NCBI RefSeq assembly: GCF_025643275.1
Contig: NZ_CP089977.1
Coordinates: forward strand, 1,050,001-1,082,000
Direction of reading: 5' to 3'
Length of the DNA stretch: 32,000 nucleotides
Source of the DNA: Moraxella nasicaprae
GTDB taxonomy: Bacteria; Pseudomonadota; Gammaproteobacteria; Pseudomonadales; Moraxellaceae
Shown: positions 4,382 to 30,920 of the stretch, one piece after another
Layout of the letters: every line of letters starts with the position of its first letter
Numbering within the stretch: the stretch's first letter is position 1
Notes under the pieces: model-generated
Database searches by the model: none
What the model saw: the letters and a program-made list of their open reading frames with translations, nothing else
Told to the model about the DNA's origin: nothing
Position numbers and translations under genes: made by a program

Positions 4382-5131
<750 letters not shown>

Positions 5132-5220: not shown

Positions 5221-5589
5221 ATGATGATTATGACCCAGCAATACACTTTTGATAAGAGCGATAGACTGCTTAATCCCAATGAGTTTAAAAAAGTGTTTGA
5301 CCAGCCAATTAAGAAAGTCCATGGCGAGCATTGCCTATTGTTTGTGGGCAAGGCTCAGACAAATACTGCCAGACTTGGACTTGCTATTACCAAAAAAAAG
5401 CTCAAACACGCCGTTGATCGCAATCGCCTTAAACGCCTAACCAGAGAGCATTTTCGTCTTACTCAATCATCTTTATCCCCCGTTGATGTAGTGATGATTG
5501 TCAAAAAAGGCTACGATAGGGAGTTTGACATCGGTGCTGAGGTGGCTGAAATTTTTAGAAAAATTAAACAAATGTATCCAAGTAATTAG
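5221..5589 (+). CDS. rnpA: Ribonuclease P protein component
   Basis: Track ORF 5134-5589, trimmed to the MMIMTQQYTF start because the upstream part overlaps the rpmH terminator. It has the RNR motif region AVDRNRLKRLTREHFR and the rpmH-rnpA-yidD-yidC context. The exact start (5221, 5224 or 5230) is uncertain. Confidence 0.88.
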   Translation: MMIMTQQYTFDKSDRLLNPNEFKKVFDQPIKKVHGEHCLLFVGKAQTNTARLGLAITKKKLKHAVDRNRLKRLTREHFRLTQSSLSPVDVVMIVKKGYDREFDIGAEVAEIFRKIKQMYPSN

Positions 5590-7886: not shown

Positions 7887-9284
7887 ATGAACCAAATTAC
7901 TATCCAAAAACCCACCATTGCCGCCATTGCCACGCCGATTGGTCAAGGAGGTGTTGGGGTTGTTCGTTTATCTGGCAAGACCGCTTATCAAATTGGTTGC
8001 CAAATCACAGGACTGCCCAAGCTAAAACCTCGCCATGCACATTTTGCCAAATTTTATGGAGAGCAAGGCGTGATTGATGAGGGAGTGGTGCTTTATTTTC
8101 AGGCACCACACTCATTTACTGGCGAAGATGTGGTGGAGCTGCAAGGACATGGCGGTGTTGTGTTACAAAACATGCTGCTTGCCAGATTGTTTGAGCTGGG
8201 TGCAAGACAGGCTCAGGCGGGTGAGTTTTCGTATCGAGCTTTTGAAAATGATAAGATAGATTTGGTGCAAGCAGAAGCCATCAGTGACATGATTAGTGCC
8301 AATTCTGTTGCTCAGGCAAGCAGTGCGATGCGTTCTTTGAGTGGGGAGTTTTCTAATAAAATTAATCGATTGCTGGATAAATTGACCAATTTACGCCTGT
8401 ATGTGGAAGCATCTATCGATTTTCCTGATGAAGAAGATGTGGATTTTTTATCCGATGGCGTGATTGAATCTCGCTTGATGGATATTTTGTCAGGTGTTGA
8501 TGAGATTTTGGCGACCGCTAAACAGGGTCAGCTACTCAGAGATGGTGTGCATGTGGTACTGGCAGGCAGACCTAATGTTGGCAAATCAAGCCTGCTGAAT
8601 CGACTGTCTGGCACTAATCGAGCCATCGTTACCGACATTGCAGGTACTACCAGAGATACGCTCGAAGAGACTTTGGTGCTAAATGGCTTGACGATTCATT
8701 TGACAGACACCGCAGGACTTAGAGAGACGGATGATAAGGTGGAGCAGATTGGGATTGAGCGTGCCAAAACCGCCATTGAGCAAGCCGATGTGCTGATGAT
8801 GGTGTATGATATAACCCAAGAAAGCAAGCCACTTGACTTGGCAAAAGAGCTGTTTGGCGATAGCATTACTGGTGATATTGACCAGATATTGCATCAAAAA
8901 TTGATGCCCGTTGCCAATAAATGCGACCTTTTGGCAAGTCAAGACGATATTGTTCCACATGAAACTTGTCAGCCCATCAATATTTACCCCGTTTCATGTG
9001 AAACTTCTTGGGGGATTGATGCTTTGGTTGATGCTTTGTGTGAAAAGGTTGGATTTCATCCATCTGAAAATAGCCTGATTGCCCGCACCAGACATATTGA
9101 CGCCCTTAAAAGAACCCGAGCAAATCTTGAACAGGCACATCAAGAATTAACTGTATTTATGGCAGGCGAATTAGTGGCTGAGCGTTTGCGATTGGCACAG
9201 CAGGACTTGGGTGAGATTACAGGTCAGATGAGTGCTGATGAATTATTGGGTAAGATTTTTTCTAGTTTTTGTATTGGAAAATAA
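7887..9284 (+). CDS. mnmE: tRNA uridine-5-carboxymethylaminomethyl synthesis GTPase MnmE
   Basis: Track ORF 7764-9284, trimmed to MNQITIQKPTIAAIATP, because the upstream part overlaps the yidC terminator. G motifs are GRPNVGKSSLLN, DTAGLR and NKCD, and the C-terminus is FCIGK. Confidence 0.94.
   Translation: MNQITIQKPTIAAIATPIGQGGVGVVRLSGKTAYQIGCQITGLPKLKPRHAHFAKFYGEQGVIDEGVVLYFQAPHSFTGEDVVELQGHGGVVLQNMLLARLFELGARQAQAGEFSYRAFENDKIDLVQAEAISDMISANSVAQASSAMRSLSGEFSNKINRLLDKLTNLRLYVEASIDFPDEEDVDFLSDGVIESRLMDILSGVDEILATAKQGQLLRDGVHVVLAGRPNVGKSSLLNRLSGTNRAIVTDIAGTTRDTLEETLVLNGLTIHLTDTAGLRETDDKVEQIGIERAKTAIEQADVLMMVYDITQESKPLDLAKELFGDSITGDIDQILHQKLMPVANKCDLLASQDDIVPHETCQPINIYPVSCETSWGIDALVDALCEKVGFHPSENSLIARTRHIDALKRTRANLEQAHQELTVFMAGELVAERLRLAQQDLGEITGQMSADELLGKIFSSFCIGK
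8952..8965. repeat. 14-mer word copy 3 (GTTCCACATGAAAC), inside mnmE
   Basis: Exact match. It encodes VPHET, a different codon phase from the recF copies. Confidence 0.9.
8991..9004. repeat. 14-mer word copy 4 (GTTTCATGTGAAAC), inside mnmE
   Basis: Exact match, starting 39 bp after the start of copy 3. It encodes VSCET. Confidence 0.9.
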
Positions 9285-9817: not shown

Positions 9818-10867
9818 ATGGACGGTCAGATTTTGCCCCATGATGCTTATTATATGGGGCTTGCCATTGCCTTAGCAAAAAAAGGAGAGTTTACCACCAG
9901 ACCCAATCCTGCTGTGGGGTGTGTGCTGGTCAAAGATGGGCGGATTATCGGAGAGGGATTTCACCCCAAGGCAGGAGAGCCGCACGCAGAAGTGTTTGCG
10001 TTGCGTCATGCCAATCAGCAGGGGTATGATGTGACTGGGGCGACTGCCTATGTAACGCTTGAACCGTGCAGCCATACAGGACGCACGCCACCGTGTGCTG
10101 ATACGCTTGTGCAAGCTGGTATTGCTCGTGTGGTCATCGCTTGCACAGATAGCAATCCTAAGGTGTCAGGCGGTGGTATTGCAAAGCTTCAACAAGCTGG
10201 TATTGCCGTGACGGTTGGGGTAGCTCATCAGCAGGCAGCTGCATTAAATCGTGGATTTTTAAAGGCGATGGCAACAGGAATGCCGTATGTACGCCTAAAA
10301 ATTGCCACCAGTTTAGATGGCAAGGTGGCAATGGCAAACGGAGAATCCAAGTGGATTACTGGTGATGAGGCTCGAGAAGATGTGCAAAAATTGCGTGCAA
10401 AAAGTGCCGCCATCATCACAGGTTCTGGCACAATCATCGCTGACAATCCATCATTGACCGTGCGTAGTACCCAGCTTGGCGTGCCAGCTTGCCATGTTCC
10501 AAGCCCAAAAATTGTCGTGCTAGACCGCAGCAAAACACTAAGCCGTTCCATGGATTATCAGGTGTTTTGCAATCCTGATACCATGATTTGGCATCAGGAT
10601 ATCCATTCATTATTAGCACTTTTGGTGCAAGAACATCAATGCCATGATGTTTTGGTGGAGGCAGGTGCTAAGGTTGCTGGTGCGTTCATTGAGGCTGATT
10701 TGGTCGATGAGTTGATTGTGTATCAAGCACCAAGCATTCTAGGGGCAAAGGCTGTTTCCATGTTTGATTTTGATGTTGGTCGGTTGGACAATCAAAGGCG
10801 ATTTACTTTGTCAGAAATGACTAAAATCGGTGAAGATGTCAAGTTGGTTTATCATAAATTATATTAA
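9818..10867 (+). CDS. ribD: Bifunctional riboflavin biosynthesis protein RibD (deaminase/reductase)
   Basis: 349-aa ORF with the CDA zinc motifs HAEVFAL and LEPCSHTGRTPPC, followed by the reductase domain (KIATSLDGK). Its ATG abuts the nrdR stop. Confidence 0.95.
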   Translation: MDGQILPHDAYYMGLAIALAKKGEFTTRPNPAVGCVLVKDGRIIGEGFHPKAGEPHAEVFALRHANQQGYDVTGATAYVTLEPCSHTGRTPPCADTLVQAGIARVVIACTDSNPKVSGGGIAKLQQAGIAVTVGVAHQQAAALNRGFLKAMATGMPYVRLKIATSLDGKVAMANGESKWITGDEAREDVQKLRAKSAAIITGSGTIIADNPSLTVRSTQLGVPACHVPSPKIVVLDRSKTLSRSMDYQVFCNPDTMIWHQDIHSLLALLVQEHQCHDVLVEAGAKVAGAFIEADLVDELIVYQAPSILGAKAVSMFDFDVGRLDNQRRFTLSEMTKIGEDVKLVYHKLY

Positions 10868-11149
10868 CTATTATATTATTTATTTTAAATAATATAAAAT
10901 TATCCACAGTCTATTTTTTCATAAATATGAACAATAGTATTTAAATTATGTTCCATGTGAAACTGTGGATAATTAGACGATTTGTATCATGATACATCGT
11001 TTATTGTATCGTAATATGATGATTTTTCAGGATATTTTTAAAAAATCAATGATTATTTTTATCTTGTGGATAACTTGATGATGGTTGATTTTACCATGCG
11101 ATAATAAATTGATTTCAAAAAAGTTATCCACAGTTTTGGAATGATGATT
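10868..11149. promoter_or_regulatory. Second DnaA-box cluster (4 perfect boxes) in the ribD-ribE spacer
   Basis: Perfect TTATCCACA at 10900-10908 (+) and 11124-11132 (+). Perfect TGTGGATAA at 10964-10972 and 11065-11073. The surroundings are AT-rich. The palindrome GTATCATGATAC is at 10984-10995. A copy of the 14-mer word directly abuts box 2. Confidence 0.7.
10950..10963. repeat. 14-mer word copy 5 (GTTCCATGTGAAAC), intergenic, abutting a DnaA box
   Basis: Exact match. It is immediately followed by TGTGGATAA (10964-10972). Confidence 0.9.
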
Positions 11150-11815
11150 ATGTTTACAGGCATTATTGAAACTCTGGGCAAGATTAAGGCGATTCAACCA
11201 ATTGGCGGCGATGTTCAGTTGGTGATTGATGCTCCCGAGTTGGATTTTAGCGATGTTAAGTTAGGAGACTCTATTGCCTCTAATGGCATTTGTCTGACCG
11301 TCGTTTCGGTGAGTGGTCATAGCTATGCGGTCGATGTTTCTCGTGAAACCATGAGTAAGACCGCCCTGCAAAACTGGCGAGTTGGCGATACGATTAACTT
11401 GGAAAAAGCCATGCTCCCCACCACTCGTTTTGGCGGTCATATTGTGGCAGGGCATGTGGACGGCGTGGGTCGAGTGCAAAAAATCAACCAAGATGCACGC
11501 TCGGTTTATATTGAGATTGAGATTCCCCAAGAATTGATGAGATATACTGCACATAAAGGTTCTATCACGCTAGACGGCATTAGCTTGACAACCAACGCCA
11601 TCATTCCTGAGAGAAATCTGGTGTGCCTGAACATCATTCCTCATACTGCCGAAAGAACCAATATCGCCAAACACTGGCAGGTGGGAGCTTTGGTTAATGT
11701 GGAGGTTGATTTGGTTGCTAGATATCTAGAAAGACTGTTATTGAGTCCAAAATCAGACAATAAACCTAAGAGTAATATCACAGAGGCTTTCTTGGCGGAA
11801 AATGGATTTGTGTAA
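11150..11815 (+). CDS. ribE: Riboflavin synthase (alpha chain)
   Basis: Canonical MFTGIIE start; the track ORF begins 9 nt earlier at MMIM. It has the duplicated lumazine-binding repeats GDSIASNGICLTV and GSITLDGISLTT. Confidence 0.93.
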   Translation: MFTGIIETLGKIKAIQPIGGDVQLVIDAPELDFSDVKLGDSIASNGICLTVVSVSGHSYAVDVSRETMSKTALQNWRVGDTINLEKAMLPTTRFGGHIVAGHVDGVGRVQKINQDARSVYIEIEIPQELMRYTAHKGSITLDGISLTTNAIIPERNLVCLNIIPHTAERTNIAKHWQVGALVNVEVDLVARYLERLLLSPKSDNKPKSNITEAFLAENGFV

Positions 11816-11922: not shown

Positions 11923-12915
11923 ATGGCAAAAATGAGAGTGGTATTTGCAGGCACGCCAGAGTTTGCTGCGGTGGCGTTGCAAAAATTGATTGATGAAAAA
12001 GAAGCGTTGAACATTGATATCGTTGCGGTGTACACTCAGCCTGATCGCAGGTCTGGGCGTGGACAAAAAATAACCATGTCAGCAGTCAAGAATGTCGCAT
12101 TGGCAAATGGTATTGCTGTTGAGCAGCCTGAAAGTTTTAGCTTAAAGCATGAATTAGGTCAGGTTTGTCGTGAAACTTTGCAAAGTTATCAAGCTGATGT
12201 CATGATTGTGGCGGCTTATGGATTGATACTACCCAAGGCGGTGCTGGAAATGCCAAAATATGGCTGTCTTAATATCCATGCTTCTTTATTACCAAAATGG
12301 CGAGGGGCGGCACCAATTCATCGAGCCATTTTGTCAGGCGATGCCACAACAGGCATCACCATCATGCAGATGAATCAAGGCTTGGATGCAGGAGATATGC
12401 TATATAAGGTGGCTTGTCCAATCCAAGATGATGACACCACGGCGACACTTCACGATACATTGGCGGTGCTTGGCGGAGAAGCGATTGTGACCGTTTTGGC
12501 GGACTTGGTGAATTTTCAAGCCAATGCAATTCCTCAAAATGATGCCGATGCAACCTATGCTGACAAGGTGTTTACCCAAGATGGTTTGATTGATTGGAGG
12601 CAGTCTGCTCATCATATTCAGCGACAGATTCGAGCATTATCTGCGTACACTTATGTCAATCAGGAGCGTATCAAGGTAATCTCAGTCTTGCCTGTTAAAC
12701 CTGAACAAACAACTAATGAGCCTGCTGGCAAAATCATCAGCGTGGGCAAAAAAGCCATTTTGGTTTCATGTGGAACAAATGAGCAGGGTGTGGCACATTT
12801 GCTAAACATTACAGGAATGCAGTGGGCTGGTGGCAAAATGCTAAATGCAGAACAAATCGCCAATGCCAATAAGCTGAACGATGGCGATGTCTTTGAGATA
12901 AAAGCAGATGAATAA
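11923..12915 (+). CDS. fmt: Methionyl-tRNA formyltransferase
   Basis: N-terminus (MAK)MRVVFAGTPEFA and the motif HASLLPKWRGAAPI. It overlaps rsmB by 8 nt. The start could be 11923 or 11932; the track ORF starts at a GTG at 11899. Confidence 0.92.
   Translation: MAKMRVVFAGTPEFAAVALQKLIDEKEALNIDIVAVYTQPDRRSGRGQKITMSAVKNVALANGIAVEQPESFSLKHELGQVCRETLQSYQADVMIVAAYGLILPKAVLEMPKYGCLNIHASLLPKWRGAAPIHRAILSGDATTGITIMQMNQGLDAGDMLYKVACPIQDDDTTATLHDTLAVLGGEAIVTVLADLVNFQANAIPQNDADATYADKVFTQDGLIDWRQSAHHIQRQIRALSAYTYVNQERIKVISVLPVKPEQTTNEPAGKIISVGKKAILVSCGTNEQGVAHLLNITGMQWAGGKMLNAEQIANANKLNDGDVFEIKADE
12763..12776. repeat. 14-mer word copy 6 (GTTTCATGTGGAAC), inside fmt
   Basis: Exact match. It encodes VSCGT. 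Confidence 0.9.
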
Positions 12916-14245
12916 TTTTTTAGATAAAATCAATAAAAAGACCTTATCATCTCGTGCAAAGTCAATATTGGTTATTGAAGAAATTCTAAATGGAAATTCA
13001 CTATCTAGTCTGCTGGATATGACGCTTGGTACCATCAATGAGACTGATAGAGGATTTTTTCATGAGTTGCTGGTGGGTACATTAAGGCACTGGCACGCAC
13101 TGGCACGCATCAGCGAGAGTCTGCTTGATAAAGAGGTGAGTGATCAGGGTTTGCTTGTGGCGATTCATGTTGGATTGTACCAAATGCTGTACATGAATAC
13201 GCCCGATTATGCTGCCATCAATGATACCGTAGAGGCTGTCAAGCAGCTGGATAAGGGTTATGGGGCGTCTTTGGTTAATGCGATTTTACGAAAGGTACAA
13301 AAAACCCCTACTAAATTTGCCAAAAAAGTGCATAAAAATCATAGCTTACCTAATTGGCTGGCAAAAGAATTAAAGCAAGACTGGCCTGAGTATTATGATG
13401 AGCTGGGGCAGGCTTTGCGTACTTGTGCGGCGGTTTTTTTGCGTATCAATGAGCGACAATGCTCGGTTGAGCAATATTCTGGCATTTTAACGCAGCATCA
13501 GACTGCTCATCAAATCGTCAAACTGGGTATTGATGACAAACAAACCATTCGGCTAGATGAGCAGATTCGCATTGTTGATTTGCCTCATTTTCAGGAAGGC
13601 TGGCTGATGGTGCAGGATTTGCATGCTCAATTATCGGCACATTTACTTGAAAAACTGGCAAAAAATCAGCTGTCTGGCAGAGTGCTTGATTTGTGTGCCG
13701 CACCAGGTGGTAAGACAACCCATTTGCTTGAAAAGTTCCACATGGAACAGTTATTAGCGATTGATAATGACGAAAAACGCTTGCTAAGAGTGCAGGAGAA
13801 TCTTGATAGACTGCGGTTAAATGACATGGCGGTGCAGACATTGGTGGCTGATGCCAGAAGTTGGCAGGCGGATAAACCATACGATGTGATTGTGCTTGAC
13901 GCTCCTTGTACGGCGACGGGTGTGATTCGTAGGCATCCTGACATCGGACTGCTTCGTACCGAAGATGATGTCCGCCAAACTTGTCAGTTACAAAAGCAAA
14001 TTTTGAATAATGCATGGCAGCAACTACAAGTTGGCGGTGTGTTACTATACATCACTTGCTCCATATTAAAGGTTGAAAATGAGCATCAATTATTGGATTT
14101 TTTGAACACCAATACTGACGCCAAACCACTGCCGTTCACATTGGACCTGCCCAACCAAATCAAACAGCAGGTTGGTTATCAATGTTTGCCATTGGATACA
14201 CAAGGCGGCGATGGTTTTTATTACGCAGCTTTGCAAAAAGTCTAG
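12908..14245 (+). CDS. rsmB: 16S rRNA (cytosine967-C5)-methyltransferase RsmB
   Basis: 445-aa ORF with an N-terminal NusB-like domain, the SAM motif DLCAAPGGKTTHL, and catalytic cysteines in DAPCTATGVIRRHPD and YITCS. It shows fmt-rsmB coupling. Confidence 0.92.
   Translation: MNNFLDKINKKTLSSRAKSILVIEEILNGNSLSSLLDMTLGTINETDRGFFHELLVGTLRHWHALARISESLLDKEVSDQGLLVAIHVGLYQMLYMNTPDYAAINDTVEAVKQLDKGYGASLVNAILRKVQKTPTKFAKKVHKNHSLPNWLAKELKQDWPEYYDELGQALRTCAAVFLRINERQCSVEQYSGILTQHQTAHQIVKLGIDDKQTIRLDEQIRIVDLPHFQEGWLMVQDLHAQLSAHLLEKLAKNQLSGRVLDLCAAPGGKTTHLLEKFHMEQLLAIDNDEKRLLRVQENLDRLRLNDMAVQTLVADARSWQADKPYDVIVLDAPCTATGVIRRHPDIGLLRTEDDVRQTCQLQKQILNNAWQQLQVGGVLLYITCSILKVENEHQLLDFLNTNTDAKPLPFTLDLPNQIKQQVGYQCLPLDTQGGDGFYYAALQKV
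13735..13748. repeat. 14-mer word copy 7 (GTTCCACATGGAAC), inside rsmB
   Basis: Exact match. It encodes KFHMEQ. Confidence 0.9.
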
Positions 14246-16935: not shown

Positions 16936-17524
16936 GCATTATTTTCATCAGGATAATTTGCCTCAGTTGTTGGCATTTTTGCGTGCTGGCGGTGTGTTGG
17001 CTTATCCTAGCGAAAGCGTTTGGGGGTTGGGCTGTGATGCAAGCGATGAGCAAGCATTGCAACGCATTGTGACACTTAAACAACGAGATTTGGGCAAGGG
17101 TTTGATTGTTTTGACCGACCAAGCCAAGAGGCTAAAATCAGCTTTATCAGACGAGTTGATTGAGCGGCTGCAAAGCATTAGTGCAAAACATATGTTGCAA
17201 CAAGGTCGAGCCAGCACTTGGCTTGTTCCAATGCCAACCAAAGTCATCAATCCACTGTTGATGGGGGATTTTGGGACGCTGGCAGTTCGCATCACACCAC
17301 ACCCGATTCTGGCAAACATTTGCCAACATTTGGTCAGTGATGTCAATCCTTATGGTTTTTTAGTGTCCACCAGTTGCAATCCATCAGGACAAAACCCTGC
17401 CACAAGCCTACAAGAGGCGTATGACTATTTTGGCGAAGAGGTTGGCTATCTTGATGTCCAAAGTTTGGGTTTTAAGCAACCAAGCCAAATCATTGATTTG
17501 ATGACAGGCAAGGTTTTTCGTTAA
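16922..17524 (+). CDS. tsaC: L-threonylcarbamoyladenylate synthase TsaC (YrdC family)
   Basis: Track ORF 16841-17524, trimmed to MPKPKHYF; the ATG at 16922 overlaps the dprA end by 14 nt. It has the YrdC motif GGVLAYPSESVWGLGCDA. Confidence 0.85.
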   Translation: MPKPKHYFHQDNLPQLLAFLRAGGVLAYPSESVWGLGCDASDEQALQRIVTLKQRDLGKGLIVLTDQAKRLKSALSDELIERLQSISAKHMLQQGRASTWLVPMPTKVINPLLMGDFGTLAVRITPHPILANICQHLVSDVNPYGFLVSTSCNPSGQNPATSLQEAYDYFGEEVGYLDVQSLGFKQPSQIIDLMTGKVFR

Positions 17525-17573
17525 AAGTCAATCAGTTATCCAAGACCGCTTACCCTGTGGTTACCAAAAAAAT

Positions 17574-17587
17574 GTTTCACATGGAAC
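17574..17587. repeat. 14-mer word copy 8 (GTTTCACATGGAAC), intergenic between convergent tsaC and the glsB-like gene
   Basis: Exact match, 50 nt after the tsaC stop and 9 nt before the glsB-like stop codon. Confidence 0.9.
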
Positions 17588-17786
17588 TTTAAGATTTATT
17601 TTTTGTTGGTTAAAAAGCCATAAATCACCAGCACAATCATCGCACCAATGACCGAAAATACCCAATAGGCAAATCCAGCCGTCGCATTAGCACCAACCAA
17701 TCCTGCTAATAGCGAGCCAATATAAGCTCCCACAATGCCTAAAATGATGGTAAAAATCCAGCCCATGCTGTCATTGCCTGGTTTTA

Positions 17787-18729
17787 TACTAAATTCACTT
17801 TAAAACCCTACAAATCTATGCTAAAATATCGCTATTATGGCATATTCAATAGAACTTAAACAAAAGGCCTTAGCCTACTTAGAGCAGTGTGGTAATATTA
17901 GCACAGTTTGTACTGCTTACAACATTTCAAGAAGCACCTTGTATGCTTGGATTAAAAAACAAGAACAAGGTGATTTGTCCTGTCAAAGTGGTGGCAATCG
18001 TGGTGTTAAAGTGGACAGAAATAAGCTTAAAACTTATGTAGAGCAAAACCCTGATGCTTACTTGTATGAAATTGCTGAAGTTTTTAATTGTGGTACAAGT
18101 ACCATCTTTTATGCTTTACGCTCTCTTGGTATTACCCATAAAAAAAGACCACAAGTTACAAAGAACAAGACCCAAACAAAATCAAAGACTATCAAGACAG
18201 GCTAAAACAGTTACAAAGCATACAAGACTACGAGCTTGTTTATGTAGATGAAACTGGTATTGACACTTACCTACACCGCACCCACGCCAGAAGTTTAAAG
18301 GGTCAAAAAGTCTATGATAAGGTGAGTGGTAAATATTATCAACGCATATCATTGGTTGCTGGACAAATTGGTAACAAAGCCAAAAACTTGATTGCTCCAC
18401 TTATCTATCAAAACACAATGGTAAGCAACTTATTTGAAACTTGGTTTGAACAAATGCTTCTACCTAGCCTTGACAACCACGCCAAGCAAACAGGTAGACC
18501 TTGTATCATCATCTTAGATAATGCAAGATTTCATAGAATGAAGCAGTTACAGGTACTTGCTAATAACACAACATGCAAACATGTTATCTTGCCACTCCCA
18601 CCTTATTCACCTAACCTAAACCCCATAGAACACACTTGGGCAACTATTAAGAGATGGCTTAGAAGTCATCTGTCAAAGTTTGAGAGTATTGAAGGTGGGC
18701 TGATGTCTTATTTTGAGTTGAATTGAGTA
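17787..18729 (+). mobile_element. IS630-family insertion sequence (943 bp)
   Basis: Imperfect terminal inverted repeats: left TACTAAATTCACTTTAAAA, and reverse complement of the right end TACTCAATTCAACTCAAAA (15 of 19 identical). It is flanked by TA at 17785-17786 and 18730-18731, the target-site duplication typical of IS630/Tc1-mariner. It carries an HTH plus DDE transposase. Confidence 0.85.
17837..18726 (+). CDS. IS630-family DDE transposase, two frames joined by a -1 frameshift at A7 (18140-18146)
   Basis: Frame 1 (17837-18145) gives MAYSIELKQKALAYLEQCGNISTVCTAYNISRSTLYAWIKK...LGITHKK (HTH domains). The -1 frame is open from just after a TAA at 18139-18141 to the stop at 18724-18726. It gives KTTSYKEQDPNKIKDYQDRL...VYVDETG...IIILDNARFH...NPIEHTWATIK, the DDE triad. 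The fused product is about 296 aa. Confidence 0.8.
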
Positions 18730-18892
18730 TAATAGACGAGCCAATAGTCCAACCAAAAATCCTACAATGATGGTTTTAATCATGTTTGTGCCTCATTTTT
18801 TTATCTATGATGTCTTGATTATACGGATTTTTTTGTTCTTGTGGGTTGTTTGTCTGTAACAATAGTCATCATAGGATTGGTTCTTTTGCAAT

Positions 18893-18919
18893 AAAAAACG
18901 CCCCAAACGGAGCGTTTTA
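18893..18919 (-). terminator. Rho-independent terminator after ribBA
   Basis: The minus-strand RNA reads AAAACGCUCC-GUUU-GGGGCGUUUUUU, beginning a few nt after the ribBA stop. Confidence 0.65.
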
Positions 18920-18924
18920 TTGTG

Positions 18925-20025
18925 TTAGGTTTTATCTACGGTCTCGATGACATTCAACCCAAAGCCTGACAGGGCATTAAATTTGACAGGGCTGGATAAT
19001 AAACGCATGTTCTTGACGCCTAAGTGTTTTAGGATTTGAGCACCAACACCGATGGTTTGGTACATTTCTCGGCGGATATGCACAGGTTTTGGGGTTGGGT
19101 TTTTGATGGCGGTAAAGGCATCGGCAAGCTGCATATCATCGCCATGCCCAATCCATACAAACACACCATGTTTGGCTTGGCTAAGCTCTTGCAAGGCGTT
19201 TTGAATGTTCCATTGGCTACCGCCTGTATGGATACCAAACAAATCTTTCATGGGCGAAAAGCTATGCACACGCACGGTACTGACTTCGTTGTCGTCAGGC
19301 GTGCCTTTGACAAAAGCTAGATGTGTGTCGGTTGAGCCAAATTCAGTAAATCGGTAGGCGGTAAATTGTCCATATTGGCTGTCGATGTCAAAATGCTCCA
19401 CTTCACTGACGGTCTGTTCGGTTGCCATGCGATATTCAATCAAATCGGCAATCGTGCCAATCTTAATGCCATGTTCTTTGGCAAAAATTTCCAAATCATC
19501 ACGGCGAGCCATTTCGCCATCTGGTTTAATAATCTCGACAATCACCGCCGCAGGTTCAAGTCCTGCCAAGCGTGCCAAGTCACACCCTGCCTCCGTATGC
19601 CCTGCACGATGCAAGACACCGCCTTGTCTTGCCATGATGGGAAAGATGTGTCCTGGCTGAACGATGTCGGTGGGCTTGGCGTTTGGGGCGACTGCTGCCA
19701 AAATGGTGGTGGCACGGTCAGAGGCTGAAATGCCAGTCGTCACCCCTTCGGCGGCTTCGATGGATAGTGTGAAATTGGTGCTAAATTTTGCACCGTTTTT
19801 ATCACTCATCAAAGGTAGGTCAAGTTGCTTGCAGCGTTCTTCGGTGAGCGTCAAGCACACCAAGCCACGAGCGTGAGTAATCATAAAATTGATGTCTGAT
19901 GGCTTGACATGGGTTGCCGCCATGATGATGTCGCCTTCGTTTTCACGCCCTTCATCGTCCATCAAAATGACCATTTTGCCTTGTTTGATGTCTTCGATAA
20001 TCTCGCGAATGTTATTTAGTGCCAT
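18925..20025 (-). CDS. ribBA: 3,4-dihydroxy-2-butanone-4-phosphate synthase fused to a degenerate GTP cyclohydrolase II-like domain (RibBX type)
   Basis: 366-aa ORF with the N-terminal DHBPS core MVILMDDEGRENEGDIIMAA...HTEAGCDLARLAG. The C-terminal domain aligns to RibA, but reads VRVHSFSPMKDLFGIHTGGSQW where active GCHII has its zinc-binding cysteines (VRVHSECLTGD...CDCG). Confidence 0.9.
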   Translation of the reverse strand: MALNNIREIIEDIKQGKMVILMDDEGRENEGDIIMAATHVKPSDINFMITHARGLVCLTLTEERCKQLDLPLMSDKNGAKFSTNFTLSIEAAEGVTTGISASDRATTILAAVAPNAKPTDIVQPGHIFPIMARQGGVLHRAGHTEAGCDLARLAGLEPAAVIVEIIKPDGEMARRDDLEIFAKEHGIKIGTIADLIEYRMATEQTVSEVEHFDIDSQYGQFTAYRFTEFGSTDTHLAFVKGTPDDNEVSTVRVHSFSPMKDLFGIHTGGSQWNIQNALQELSQAKHGVFVWIGHGDDMQLADAFTAIKNPTPKPVHIRREMYQTIGVGAQILKHLGVKNMRLLSSPVKFNALSGFGLNVIETVDKT

Positions 20026-30906: not shown

Positions 30907-30920
30907 GTTTCATGTGAAAC
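30907..30920. repeat. 14-mer word copy 9 (GTTTCATGTGAAAC), intergenic after rlmB
   Basis: Exact match, 16 nt after the rlmB stop and upstream of the bidirectional terminator. Confidence 0.9.

Follow-up and report, generated by a model that had tools for sequence, protein, structure and literature searches.

A four-box DnaA-box array with an abutting parS-like palindrome, conserved between ribD and ribE in Moraxella and Psychrobacter

The ribD-ribE spacer and its conserved box array

The 282-bp gap between the riboflavin genes ribD and ribE of Moraxella nasicaprae holds four perfect DnaA boxes, one of which is abutted by a palindrome that resembles parS, the site of the partition protein ParB. 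The gap lies in a 32-kb stretch of contig NZ_CP089977.1, hereafter called the window, and the gene order given here is read along its + strand. The genes recF-dnaN-dnaA lie on the - strand and are followed, after a spacer of 615 bp, by rpmH-rnpA-yidD-yidC-mnmE-nrdR-ribD on the + strand; beyond the gap 3' of ribD, the + strand continues with ribE-fmt-rsmB-thrC-dprA-tsaC. The ribD gene spans 9818-10867. The open reading frame of ribE opens at 11141, and its probable start is the ATG at 11150, since homologues begin with MFTG and the closest relatives are called at 221 aa; with the start placed there, the last DnaA box ends 17 nt before ribE. The gap and its immediate surroundings carry the following features:

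10868..11149: ribD-ribE spacer, the whole DnaA-box/parS element, 22% G+C
10836..10893, + strand: three overlapping promoter-like matches, each 9/12, with the predicted transcript start at or in box 1
10900..10908, + strand: DnaA box 1, TTATCCACA, perfect; at most one mismatch in 11/11 taxa of the first set
10950..10963: parS-like palindrome GTTCCATGTGAAAC; the 16-mer at 10949-10964 shares one base with box 2
10964..10972, - strand: DnaA box 2, reading TGTGGATAA on the + strand, perfect
11012..11024, - strand: IHF-like site AATCATCATATTA, one deviation from WATCARNNNNTTR
11065..11073, - strand: DnaA box 3, reading TGTGGATAA on the + strand, perfect
11102..11114, - strand: exact IHF consensus AATCAATTTATTA between boxes 3 and 4, of uncertain meaning
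11124..11132, + strand: DnaA box 4, TTATCCACA, perfect; 17 nt from its end to the ribE ATG at 11150

The four boxes are not a product of chance. Perfect DnaA boxes number seven in the window against 0.46 ± 0.64 expected, none of 100 shuffles reaches seven, and all seven sit in two intergenic clusters, four between ribD and ribE and three between dnaA and rpmH. The first-pass annotation of this DNA had described four perfect 9-mers in an AT-rich spacer, the last of them 17 nt from the ribE ATG, as a non-coding cluster separate from the dnaA-linked one, and its coordinates and its separation of the two clusters are borne out; a similar density of perfect boxes in other intergenic regions, which it had named as a point that would weaken its interpretation, is not seen anywhere else in the window. 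Its view that the boxes share an extended flank with those beside dnaA is broadly right, as AAGTTATCCACA(G/A) occurs at boxes 3 and 4 in most taxa and also at 4537. An Rfam scan of the whole window at gathering thresholds gave zero matches, and the spacer therefore contains no FMN riboswitch or other known RNA. With four perfect boxes in 282 bp, placed between genes and kept across genera, the spacer has the box content of a non-origin DnaA-box cluster in the Bacillus subtilis sense. It is best explained as a conserved protein-docking module, neither a gene nor the main origin, at which DnaA, ParB and IHF are predicted to bind.

The array is shared with a broad group of relatives. The RibE protein of the window has its nearest matches in Moraxella sp. 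(99% and 97% identity) and shares 70-83% identity with those of many Moraxella and Psychrobacter species. A first set of ten related loci (L001-L010) retains the gene order between rpmH and ribE, preceded by dnaA in every case where the sequence extends that far, as well as the long ribD-ribE spacer and the box order forward, reverse, reverse, forward. A MAFFT alignment of the 11 spacers (window and L001-L010) has a mean column identity of 37%, and its invariant columns are almost only those of the four boxes and one or two flanking bases. Loci added later comprise close relatives (L018 and L022-L028), an M. bovis-like locus (L020), P. urativorans (L021), six metagenome loci, the deep lineage L044 and M. 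osloensis (L109). The forward-reverse-reverse-forward chain was detected automatically in 22 loci, and together with L109 the cluster is kept in at least 23 loci of Moraxella, Psychrobacter and related lineages (RibE identity about 55-100%), which settles in favour of retention the comparison with related species that the first-pass annotation had proposed. Among the 22 loci, boxes 1 and 2 are separated by 52-84 bp, boxes 2 and 3 by 98-145 bp, and boxes 3 and 4 by 47-60 bp. These spacings are grouped in steps of about 10-11 bp, for example 47-48 versus 57-60 (Rayleigh-type tests on unique values, P ~0.003-0.02), a periodicity that is suggestive only, the P values being optimistic owing to related lineages.

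Constraint also reaches beyond the boxes. Compared with its closest relative L018, the window spacer has three differences in 282 bp (98.9% identity), while ribD and ribE are 97.1% and 95.8% identical, respectively. The spacer is more alike than the genes that flank it, and the whole of it is therefore constrained, pointing to purifying selection on the spacer between close relatives.

Outside this group the array gives way to short gaps and absent boxes. Six betaproteobacterial loci have zero boxes, and in the three of them with ribD upstream the gap to ribE is 17-90 bp. Of 74 metagenome loci whose RibE is at most 56% identical, 73 lack any perfect box in the 600 bp that precede ribE; the lone exception, L044 (RibE 55% identity), carries the element. 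L110, a relative of the L044 lineage, has ribD and ribE 21 bp apart in a classical rib operon with zero boxes. As the first-pass annotation had assumed, ribD and ribE usually adjoin, the gap being mostly 12-90 bp in the other Proteobacteria sampled with ribD upstream. The outer taxonomic limit of the element, Acinetobacter included, is expressed here only through RibE identity.

Further observations on the related loci concern their DnaA boxes and the region upstream of rpmH. Psychrobacter sp. DM8 (L006, 1656-1696) and DM4 (L007, 1707-1734) have a third cluster of two or three perfect DnaA boxes at rnpA/yidD-yidC, which is absent from the window. In a Moraxella metagenome-assembled genome (L009, 1-1320), the sequence upstream of rpmH is coding-like (40% G+C), contains a transposase-like HWAIEN motif and shows neither DnaA boxes nor a dnaA match, while the ribD-ribE element is still intact. 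Either an insertion sequence split rpmH from the origin in L009, or the contig is chimeric.

The parS-like site and the centre of the element

The palindrome beside box 2 is one copy of a 14-mer word, GTTYCAYRTGRAAC, which occurs ten times in the window against 0.11 expected, three to seven times per Moraxella/Psychrobacter locus and not at all in the betaproteobacterial loci. The first-pass annotation had correctly noticed a copy of this word fused to box 2 but missed its parS-like nature. The 14-mer has 0-2 mismatches to the chromosomal ParB site tGTTNCACGTGAAACa (consensus from PMC7022226), with a perfect copy in L009, and the 16-bp palindrome at 10949-10964 of the window has two. The copies in the window are:

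648-661, 1350-1363, 8952-8965, 8991-9004 and 10950-10963: parS-like palindromes, the last beside box 2
11336-11349, 12763-12776, 13735-13748, 17574-17587 and 30907-30920: parS-like palindromes, remaining copies

Nine of the ten copies lie between about 4 kb left and 13 kb right of the dnaA-rpmH spacer, a clustering around the origin observed in a sample of origin-proximal sequence only, and several recur at matching positions in mnmE, ribE, fmt and rsmB across genera. From its sequence and its clustering, we assign the 14-mer as a parS-like, putative ParB site. Among 22 loci, its core ends where box 2 begins in 15 (offset -14) and is no more than 30 bp from box 2 in 19; in most of the remaining loci it begins 2-4 bp past box 2. 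Several Psychrobacter loci have a copy on both sides of box 2, and only L001-L003 lack a parS in the spacer, with all four boxes kept. The parS-like site fused to box 2 is, as judged from these alignments, the most consistent accessory feature of the element.

The centre of the element, between boxes 2 and 3, often contains a candidate site for IHF. The consensus WATCARNNNNTTR is found there in 8 of 11 taxa against 0.37 expected (maximum of three in 2000 shuffles), and the one-deviation site of the window, AATCATCATATTA, aligns with the exact-consensus sites of L001-L003, L025 and L028. In the window, L018 and L020 the dnaA-rpmH origin has the same ATCAT variant, 22 bp away from its R1-type box, and because of this position the variant may be acceptable as an IHF site in these organisms. 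Six loci without any IHF-type match have a second parS between boxes 2 and 3. The exact consensus AATCAATTTATTA between boxes 3 and 4 is present only in the window and L018 and was found in none of ten other taxa scanned.

These arrangements bear on an alternative in which the primary role of the element is chromosome segregation, with DnaA beside parS licensing or organising the ParB-parS partition complex and titration being secondary. The closeness of parS to box 2, its presence on both sides of that box in Psychrobacter, the second parS in loci lacking the IHF consensus and the position of the element within a dense origin-proximal parS cluster are all consistent with it, and there are a precedent in Caulobacter and ParB-DnaA contacts in Vibrio and Deinococcus (PMC6399470, PMC7022226). 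We consider it unlikely nonetheless, since L001-L003 keep the four boxes without a parS in the spacer, nine other parS-like sites of the window have no adjoining DnaA box, and the Caulobacter boxes are few and weak, unlike the four perfect ones found here.

The parS-like copies of the window are mostly intragenic (recF, mnmE, ribE, fmt and rsmB), and their centre usually reads CA or TG instead of the canonical CG, while L004 and some relatives keep CACGTG; ten copies per 32 kb is high for a chromosomal parS set. The copy at 11336-11349 within ribE encodes the conserved RibE motif V-S-R-E-T, and a ribE copy is found at about +189 in L001, L004, L005, L007 and L008. Betaproteobacterial ribE shares the invariant motif residues V61, S64 and E66 without a parS-like match, suggesting that codon choice in Moraxella/Psychrobacter ribE maintains the site. 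The par genes are reported missing from just two gammaproteobacterial families, Enterobacteriaceae and Pasteurellaceae (PMC7022226). About 9 kb downstream of the element, M. osloensis has a gene for a ParA/CbiA-family ATPase (L109, 18230-18669, - strand), which hints that par or related genes are located near the origin at least in this species.

A 12-bp palindrome pointed out by the first-pass annotation, GTATCATGATAC at 10984-10995, is indeed present, but it is kept only among the closest relatives. An imperfect inverted repeat lies at 10977-11000, and two of the three substitutions by which the window spacer differs from L018 are divided between its arms (ACGAT...ATCGT versus ATGAT...ATCAT); L022-L024 show a G·U-compatible intermediate (C-to-U, then G-to-A in the close relatives). 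A hairpin at 10984-10995 was considered, as the substitutions looked compensatory, and was dropped as a feature: it is not more stable than shuffled sequences (z -1.0 to -1.7), its predicted fold varies among relatives, and the region is not conserved further out.

Position of the replication origin

The main origin lies elsewhere than in the ribD-ribE element: its probable site is the dnaA-rpmH spacer, from which the element is 6.1 kb away on the right-hand side. The parts of that spacer are listed for context:

4382..4996: dnaA-rpmH spacer, probable oriC
about 4670-4734: AT-rich DNA unwinding element (DUE)
4661-4669: R1-type box
4630-4642: IHF-like site
4537 and 4561: tandem boxes

Perfect boxes are found there at 4537, 4561 and 4735 and one-mismatch boxes at 4618, 4661 and 4753, the same three and three that the first-pass annotation had counted.

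Third-codon GC skew on the + strand is negative in recF (-0.24), dnaN (-0.20) and dnaA (-0.11) and positive in yidD (+0.12), yidC (+0.18), mnmE (+0.16), nrdR (+0.25) and ribD (+0.19). Right of the element it is positive in nearly every gene, with a near-zero esterase gene as the sole exception. All nine - strand genes in that part are positive as well (+0.16 to +0.39), so the sign of the skew follows replication and not transcription. The cumulative GC-skew minimum falls at 5481, a value that marks the origin region and not the exact site, and the switch is not at the element. When the GC-skew comparison proposed by the first-pass annotation is run within the window, the sign change is thus placed at the dnaA-rpmH spacer and not at 10.9-11.1 kb.

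Sequence organisation points to the same spacer. The origin signature proposed for Gammaproteobacteria consists of an AT-rich DUE, about two helical turns on a reverse R1-type box (TGTGNAWAA), and then an IHF site whose conserved C lies about 21 bp past the R1-type box (Weigel 2025). Read with rpmH to the left, the dnaA-rpmH spacer has about 65 bp of very AT-rich DNA, an R1-type reverse box and an IHF-type site with its C at +22, and further on more reverse boxes and then two forward boxes 24 bp apart that adjoin dnaA. The signature is matched by this spacer in the window, L018 and L020 (81-85% A+T upstream, C at +22). A search for the same pattern in the ribD-ribE spacer of 15 loci, in both orientations, gave no match, and ribD and ribE are both on the + strand, so that the gene to the left of the element is not counter-clockwise as it is for oriC. 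The suggestion that the four-box cluster might be the true oriC is therefore contradicted: the genes from yidD to ribD already have the skew of the right replichore, and the DUE-R1-IHF signature occurs in the dnaA-rpmH spacer only. This cautions origin-prediction tools against equating the origin with the densest group of perfect boxes in the neighbourhood of dnaA.

A second, weaker or conditional origin, the Moraxellaceae counterpart of Pseudomonas oriC2/oriCII, is kept as a rival because the skew marks a region only and because P. aeruginosa has two plasmid-functional origins 5 kb apart. The element matches P. aeruginosa oriC2 in its distance and side relative to rpmH...mnmE, its spacer is AT-rich, with a single G/C at 10868-10899, and its boxes 3 and 4 face each other, as R1 and R4 do. 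We regard such an origin as improbable, and the option of a second or bipartite origin, also raised by the first-pass annotation, gained nothing from the analysis. The skew turns from negative values in recF, dnaN and dnaA to positive ones at yidD and stays positive through ribD; the combination of an R1-type box, an IHF site at +21/22 and an upstream DUE is missing from the element, whereas the dnaA-rpmH spacer has it; and the clockwise flanking genes break the left-gene-counter-clockwise rule, which is described as exceptionless among confirmed origins. Moreover, the AT-rich 32 bp before box 1 are not conserved, no mnmG gene adjoins the element, and the spacer has no match in the PLSDB plasmid collection.

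In Psychrobacter sp. DM4 the dnaA-rpmH spacer carries, just beyond its DnaA-box region, a long run of tandem GAGCACA heptamers (L007, about 75-185). A low-G+C patch at 17500-18900 of the window (0.37) has reversed GC skew and strong AT skew; it contains an unassigned open reading frame of 122 aa (17837-18205) and an IS630-family transposase fragment (18322-18726), and the corresponding place in L018 holds a small Transgly_assoc gene.

Proposed function and comparison with known systems

No terminator-like site was found in 10600-11400, and none follows ribD; likewise, the stretch from box 1 to ribE gave no + strand promoter match. On that strand, promoter-like sequences near the element are confined to 10836..10893, just 5' of box 1; they are weak matches in AT-rich DNA, where the two strands together give seven against 3.7 ± 1.7 expected. 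As predicted from these searches, the element in this species seems to lack a promoter dedicated to ribE, and because ribD has no terminator either, transcription from ribD or its 3' end would have to cross the bound boxes.

The element could accordingly be read as mainly a DnaA-controlled promoter or roadblock that sets the expression of ribE (riboflavin synthase), its closeness to the origin being incidental. In the window and about eight relatives, 14-29 nt separate box 4 from the start of ribE, the missing terminator and the promoter-like sites just upstream of box 1 would suit such a role, and elsewhere DnaA acts as a repressor, an activator or a terminator, the oriCII boxes of P. aeruginosa regulating gidAB-parAB. 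However, relatives keep the internal geometry of the four boxes but place the ribE ATG anywhere from 14 to 324 nt beyond box 4, so the module is conserved as a unit and not as a promoter operator. A simple operator would also need less than four perfect boxes, a parS and an IHF-type site, and it is not apparent why riboflavin synthase should be coupled to DnaA; we find this explanation quite unlikely. The same variation in distance weakens the earlier proposal that DnaA at box 4 gates ribE, whereas control through read-through stays plausible. The ribBA gene of the window (18925-20025, - strand) is 7 kb downstream and on the opposite strand; the riboflavin genes are thus scattered here, unlike in the ribD-ribE-ribBA-ribH operon of L110.

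We favour, with a probability of roughly one half, the reading that the element is an origin-proximal, non-origin control locus bound by DnaA, similar to datA or to the DnaA-box clusters of B. subtilis and coupled to a centromere, with ribE as a read-through passenger. As is established for R-type boxes, tight binding of DnaA is expected at four consensus boxes whether it carries ATP or ADP, and the element is copied almost at once after initiation because it lies only 6.1 kb from the dnaA-rpmH origin. It would hold DnaA away from oriC, either as a sink of the datA or DnaA-box-cluster kind or as a platform that inactivates DnaA and so damps re-initiation. Through the abutting parS, DnaA occupancy would be linked to the loading of ParB at the origin-proximal centromere cluster, where the two proteins may compete or touch. 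Transcription through the bound boxes would make ribE expression a passenger of DnaA occupancy, and read-through could also clear the element, as at Escherichia coli datA. Among the roles listed by the first-pass annotation, the datA-like one gives the best fit: four boxes are present, boxes 2 and 3 are co-oriented in all loci and enclose the IHF consensus in 8 of 11 taxa (one base off in the window), and the locus is close to the origin, with no terminator upstream and no internal promoter match as far as predicted from the sequence.

A more tentative suggestion concerns the junction of box 2 and parS, which may be a hard-wired DnaA/ParB switch, the two proteins competing or cooperating on overlapping sites 6 kb from oriC. 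If so, DnaA occupancy would time the loading of ParB, and hence SMC recruitment and origin segregation; alternatively, ParB would set the amount of DnaA that is kept from oriC. Such a junction would represent a new class of composite cis-element, a datA-like sink combined with a centromere, across Moraxella and Psychrobacter.

A DARS-like site that regenerates ATP-DnaA from ADP-DnaA, another of the roles proposed for the cluster, seems highly improbable. The combination of a non-coding DnaA-box cluster with an IHF-type site recalls DARS2, but a DARS core consists of three closely packed boxes, whereas neighbouring boxes are 47-145 bp apart in all 22 loci considered here. Furthermore, DARS1 and DARS2 of E. 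coli are thought to act later in the replication cycle, once duplicated, while datA is close to oriC.

Several points weigh against the DnaA-binding control locus that we favour. According to one study (PMC11331064), E. coli can be nearly normal without its extrinsic DnaA regulators, datA included. The datA locus requires a low-affinity box by box 2 and oligomerisation of ATP-DnaA, features without an evident counterpart here; four boxes also make a small sink. In the window and its nearest relatives the aligned central position is occupied by AATCATCATATTA, one base off and with no exact consensus there, and no par gene was found in the 32-kb window. Finally, the compared loci are mutually related, so that the cross-locus counts overstate the number of independent observations.

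Non-origin DnaA loci that tune initiation are known in detail only for E. coli (datA and DARS) and B. subtilis (DnaA-box clusters) and are mostly obscure elsewhere. The element is short, sharply defined and strongly conserved in a family with human and animal pathogens (relatives of Moraxella catarrhalis, M. bovis) and the cold-adapted Psychrobacter. It therefore offers a compact, mutable target for asking how bacteria without SeqA/Dam or a known datA restrain re-initiation, and it also bears on the coupling of initiation to ParABS-driven segregation of the origin. Our search of the literature on DnaA boxes in Moraxella and Psychrobacter, on the 14-mer and on DnaA boxes with rib genes returned no description of the element, and a study of dual origins in Pseudomonadaceae and Halomonadaceae mentions neither Moraxellaceae nor rib genes. 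Clusters of DnaA boxes outside the origin are already known; for a fixed four-box array with a parS abutting one box, kept throughout Moraxella sensu lato and Psychrobacter, we found no earlier description.

Initiator and centromere sites are found together in other bacteria as well. In the rctA/parS2 region of Vibrio cholerae chromosome II, a centromere site lies inside a non-coding, initiator-titrating locus near the origin, the zones of ParB and of the initiator adjoin each other, and the locus is modulated by transcription (PMC6399470); the initiator there is RctB and not DnaA, however, and the origin is plasmid-like. In Caulobacter crescentus, DnaA is reported to act at the centromere about 8 kb from Cori and links initiation to segregation (PMC6399470, PMC7022226), and the parS region resembles the element in placing the initiator beside ParB sites a few kb from the origin (Mera et al. 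2014; via PMC6399470). Unlike Caulobacter, Moraxella and Psychrobacter, which are Gammaproteobacteria, have four consensus boxes in a conserved array, a direct abutment of box and parS, and many parS copies.

Like the element, the oriCII/oriC2 locus of P. aeruginosa is a second group of DnaA boxes on the mnmE side of the dnaA-rpmH origin, at a distance of about 5 kb; the chromosome can initiate without it, and DnaA bound there regulates the downstream operon gidAB-parAB. The Pseudomonas family is related to Moraxellaceae, both being Gammaproteobacteria of the order Pseudomonadales in the GTDB taxonomy, and dual origins are predicted in Pseudomonadaceae and Halomonadaceae. The two loci differ in that oriC2 lies upstream of mnmG, carries the full DUE-trio-R1-IHF signature and replicates plasmids, while the Moraxella element has neither that neighbour nor that signature: no mnmG (gidA) was found in the window or the related loci, and the adjacent genes are ribD and ribE.

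The DnaA-box clusters of B. subtilis are likewise groups of consensus boxes outside oriC, intergenic and near the origin. They are described as acting negatively on initiation, the origin-proximal ones restraining it together with Spo0J (ParB) and Soj, with which they show genetic synergy, and some of them as regulating neighbouring genes. They differ from the element in comprising several loci without a fixed four-box architecture and in belonging to another phylum, and the abstract that describes them does not mention a box-fused parS. By analogy with them, the fused parS suggests that the DnaA and ParB systems may meet on the same DNA in Moraxellaceae.

The closest likeness is to datA of E. 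coli, the site of datA-dependent DnaA-ATP hydrolysis (DDAH). As measured in MG1655, boxes 2 and 3 of datA point the same way at a distance of 162 bp and enclose the IHF site, one more box lies upstream, an inverted box follows 3 bp past box 3, and the locus is situated just downstream of the glyVXY operon. According to the literature, datA cannot function without three of its boxes and its IHF site; transcription running on from the tRNA operon displaces IHF, and box 2 serves as a roadblock. There is no relation in sequence or synteny (glyVXY-queG versus ribD-ribE); boxes 3 and 4 of datA are 3 bp apart, whereas the outer pairs of the Moraxella element are separated by 47-84 bp; and datA has no parS, as E. 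coli lacks ParABS. The datA locus lies about 470 kb from oriC and the Moraxella element 6 kb from its origin. Both are nevertheless non-coding and have four boxes, and two co-oriented high-affinity boxes enclose one IHF site at datA and, in most of the taxa scanned, a candidate IHF site here. Both also occupy an origin-proximal position and follow an operon, with read-through known at datA and predicted here. The Moraxella element would therefore share the logic of datA: a central co-oriented pair around a putative IHF-type site, inverted outer boxes, no upstream terminator, no internal promoter match and early replication.

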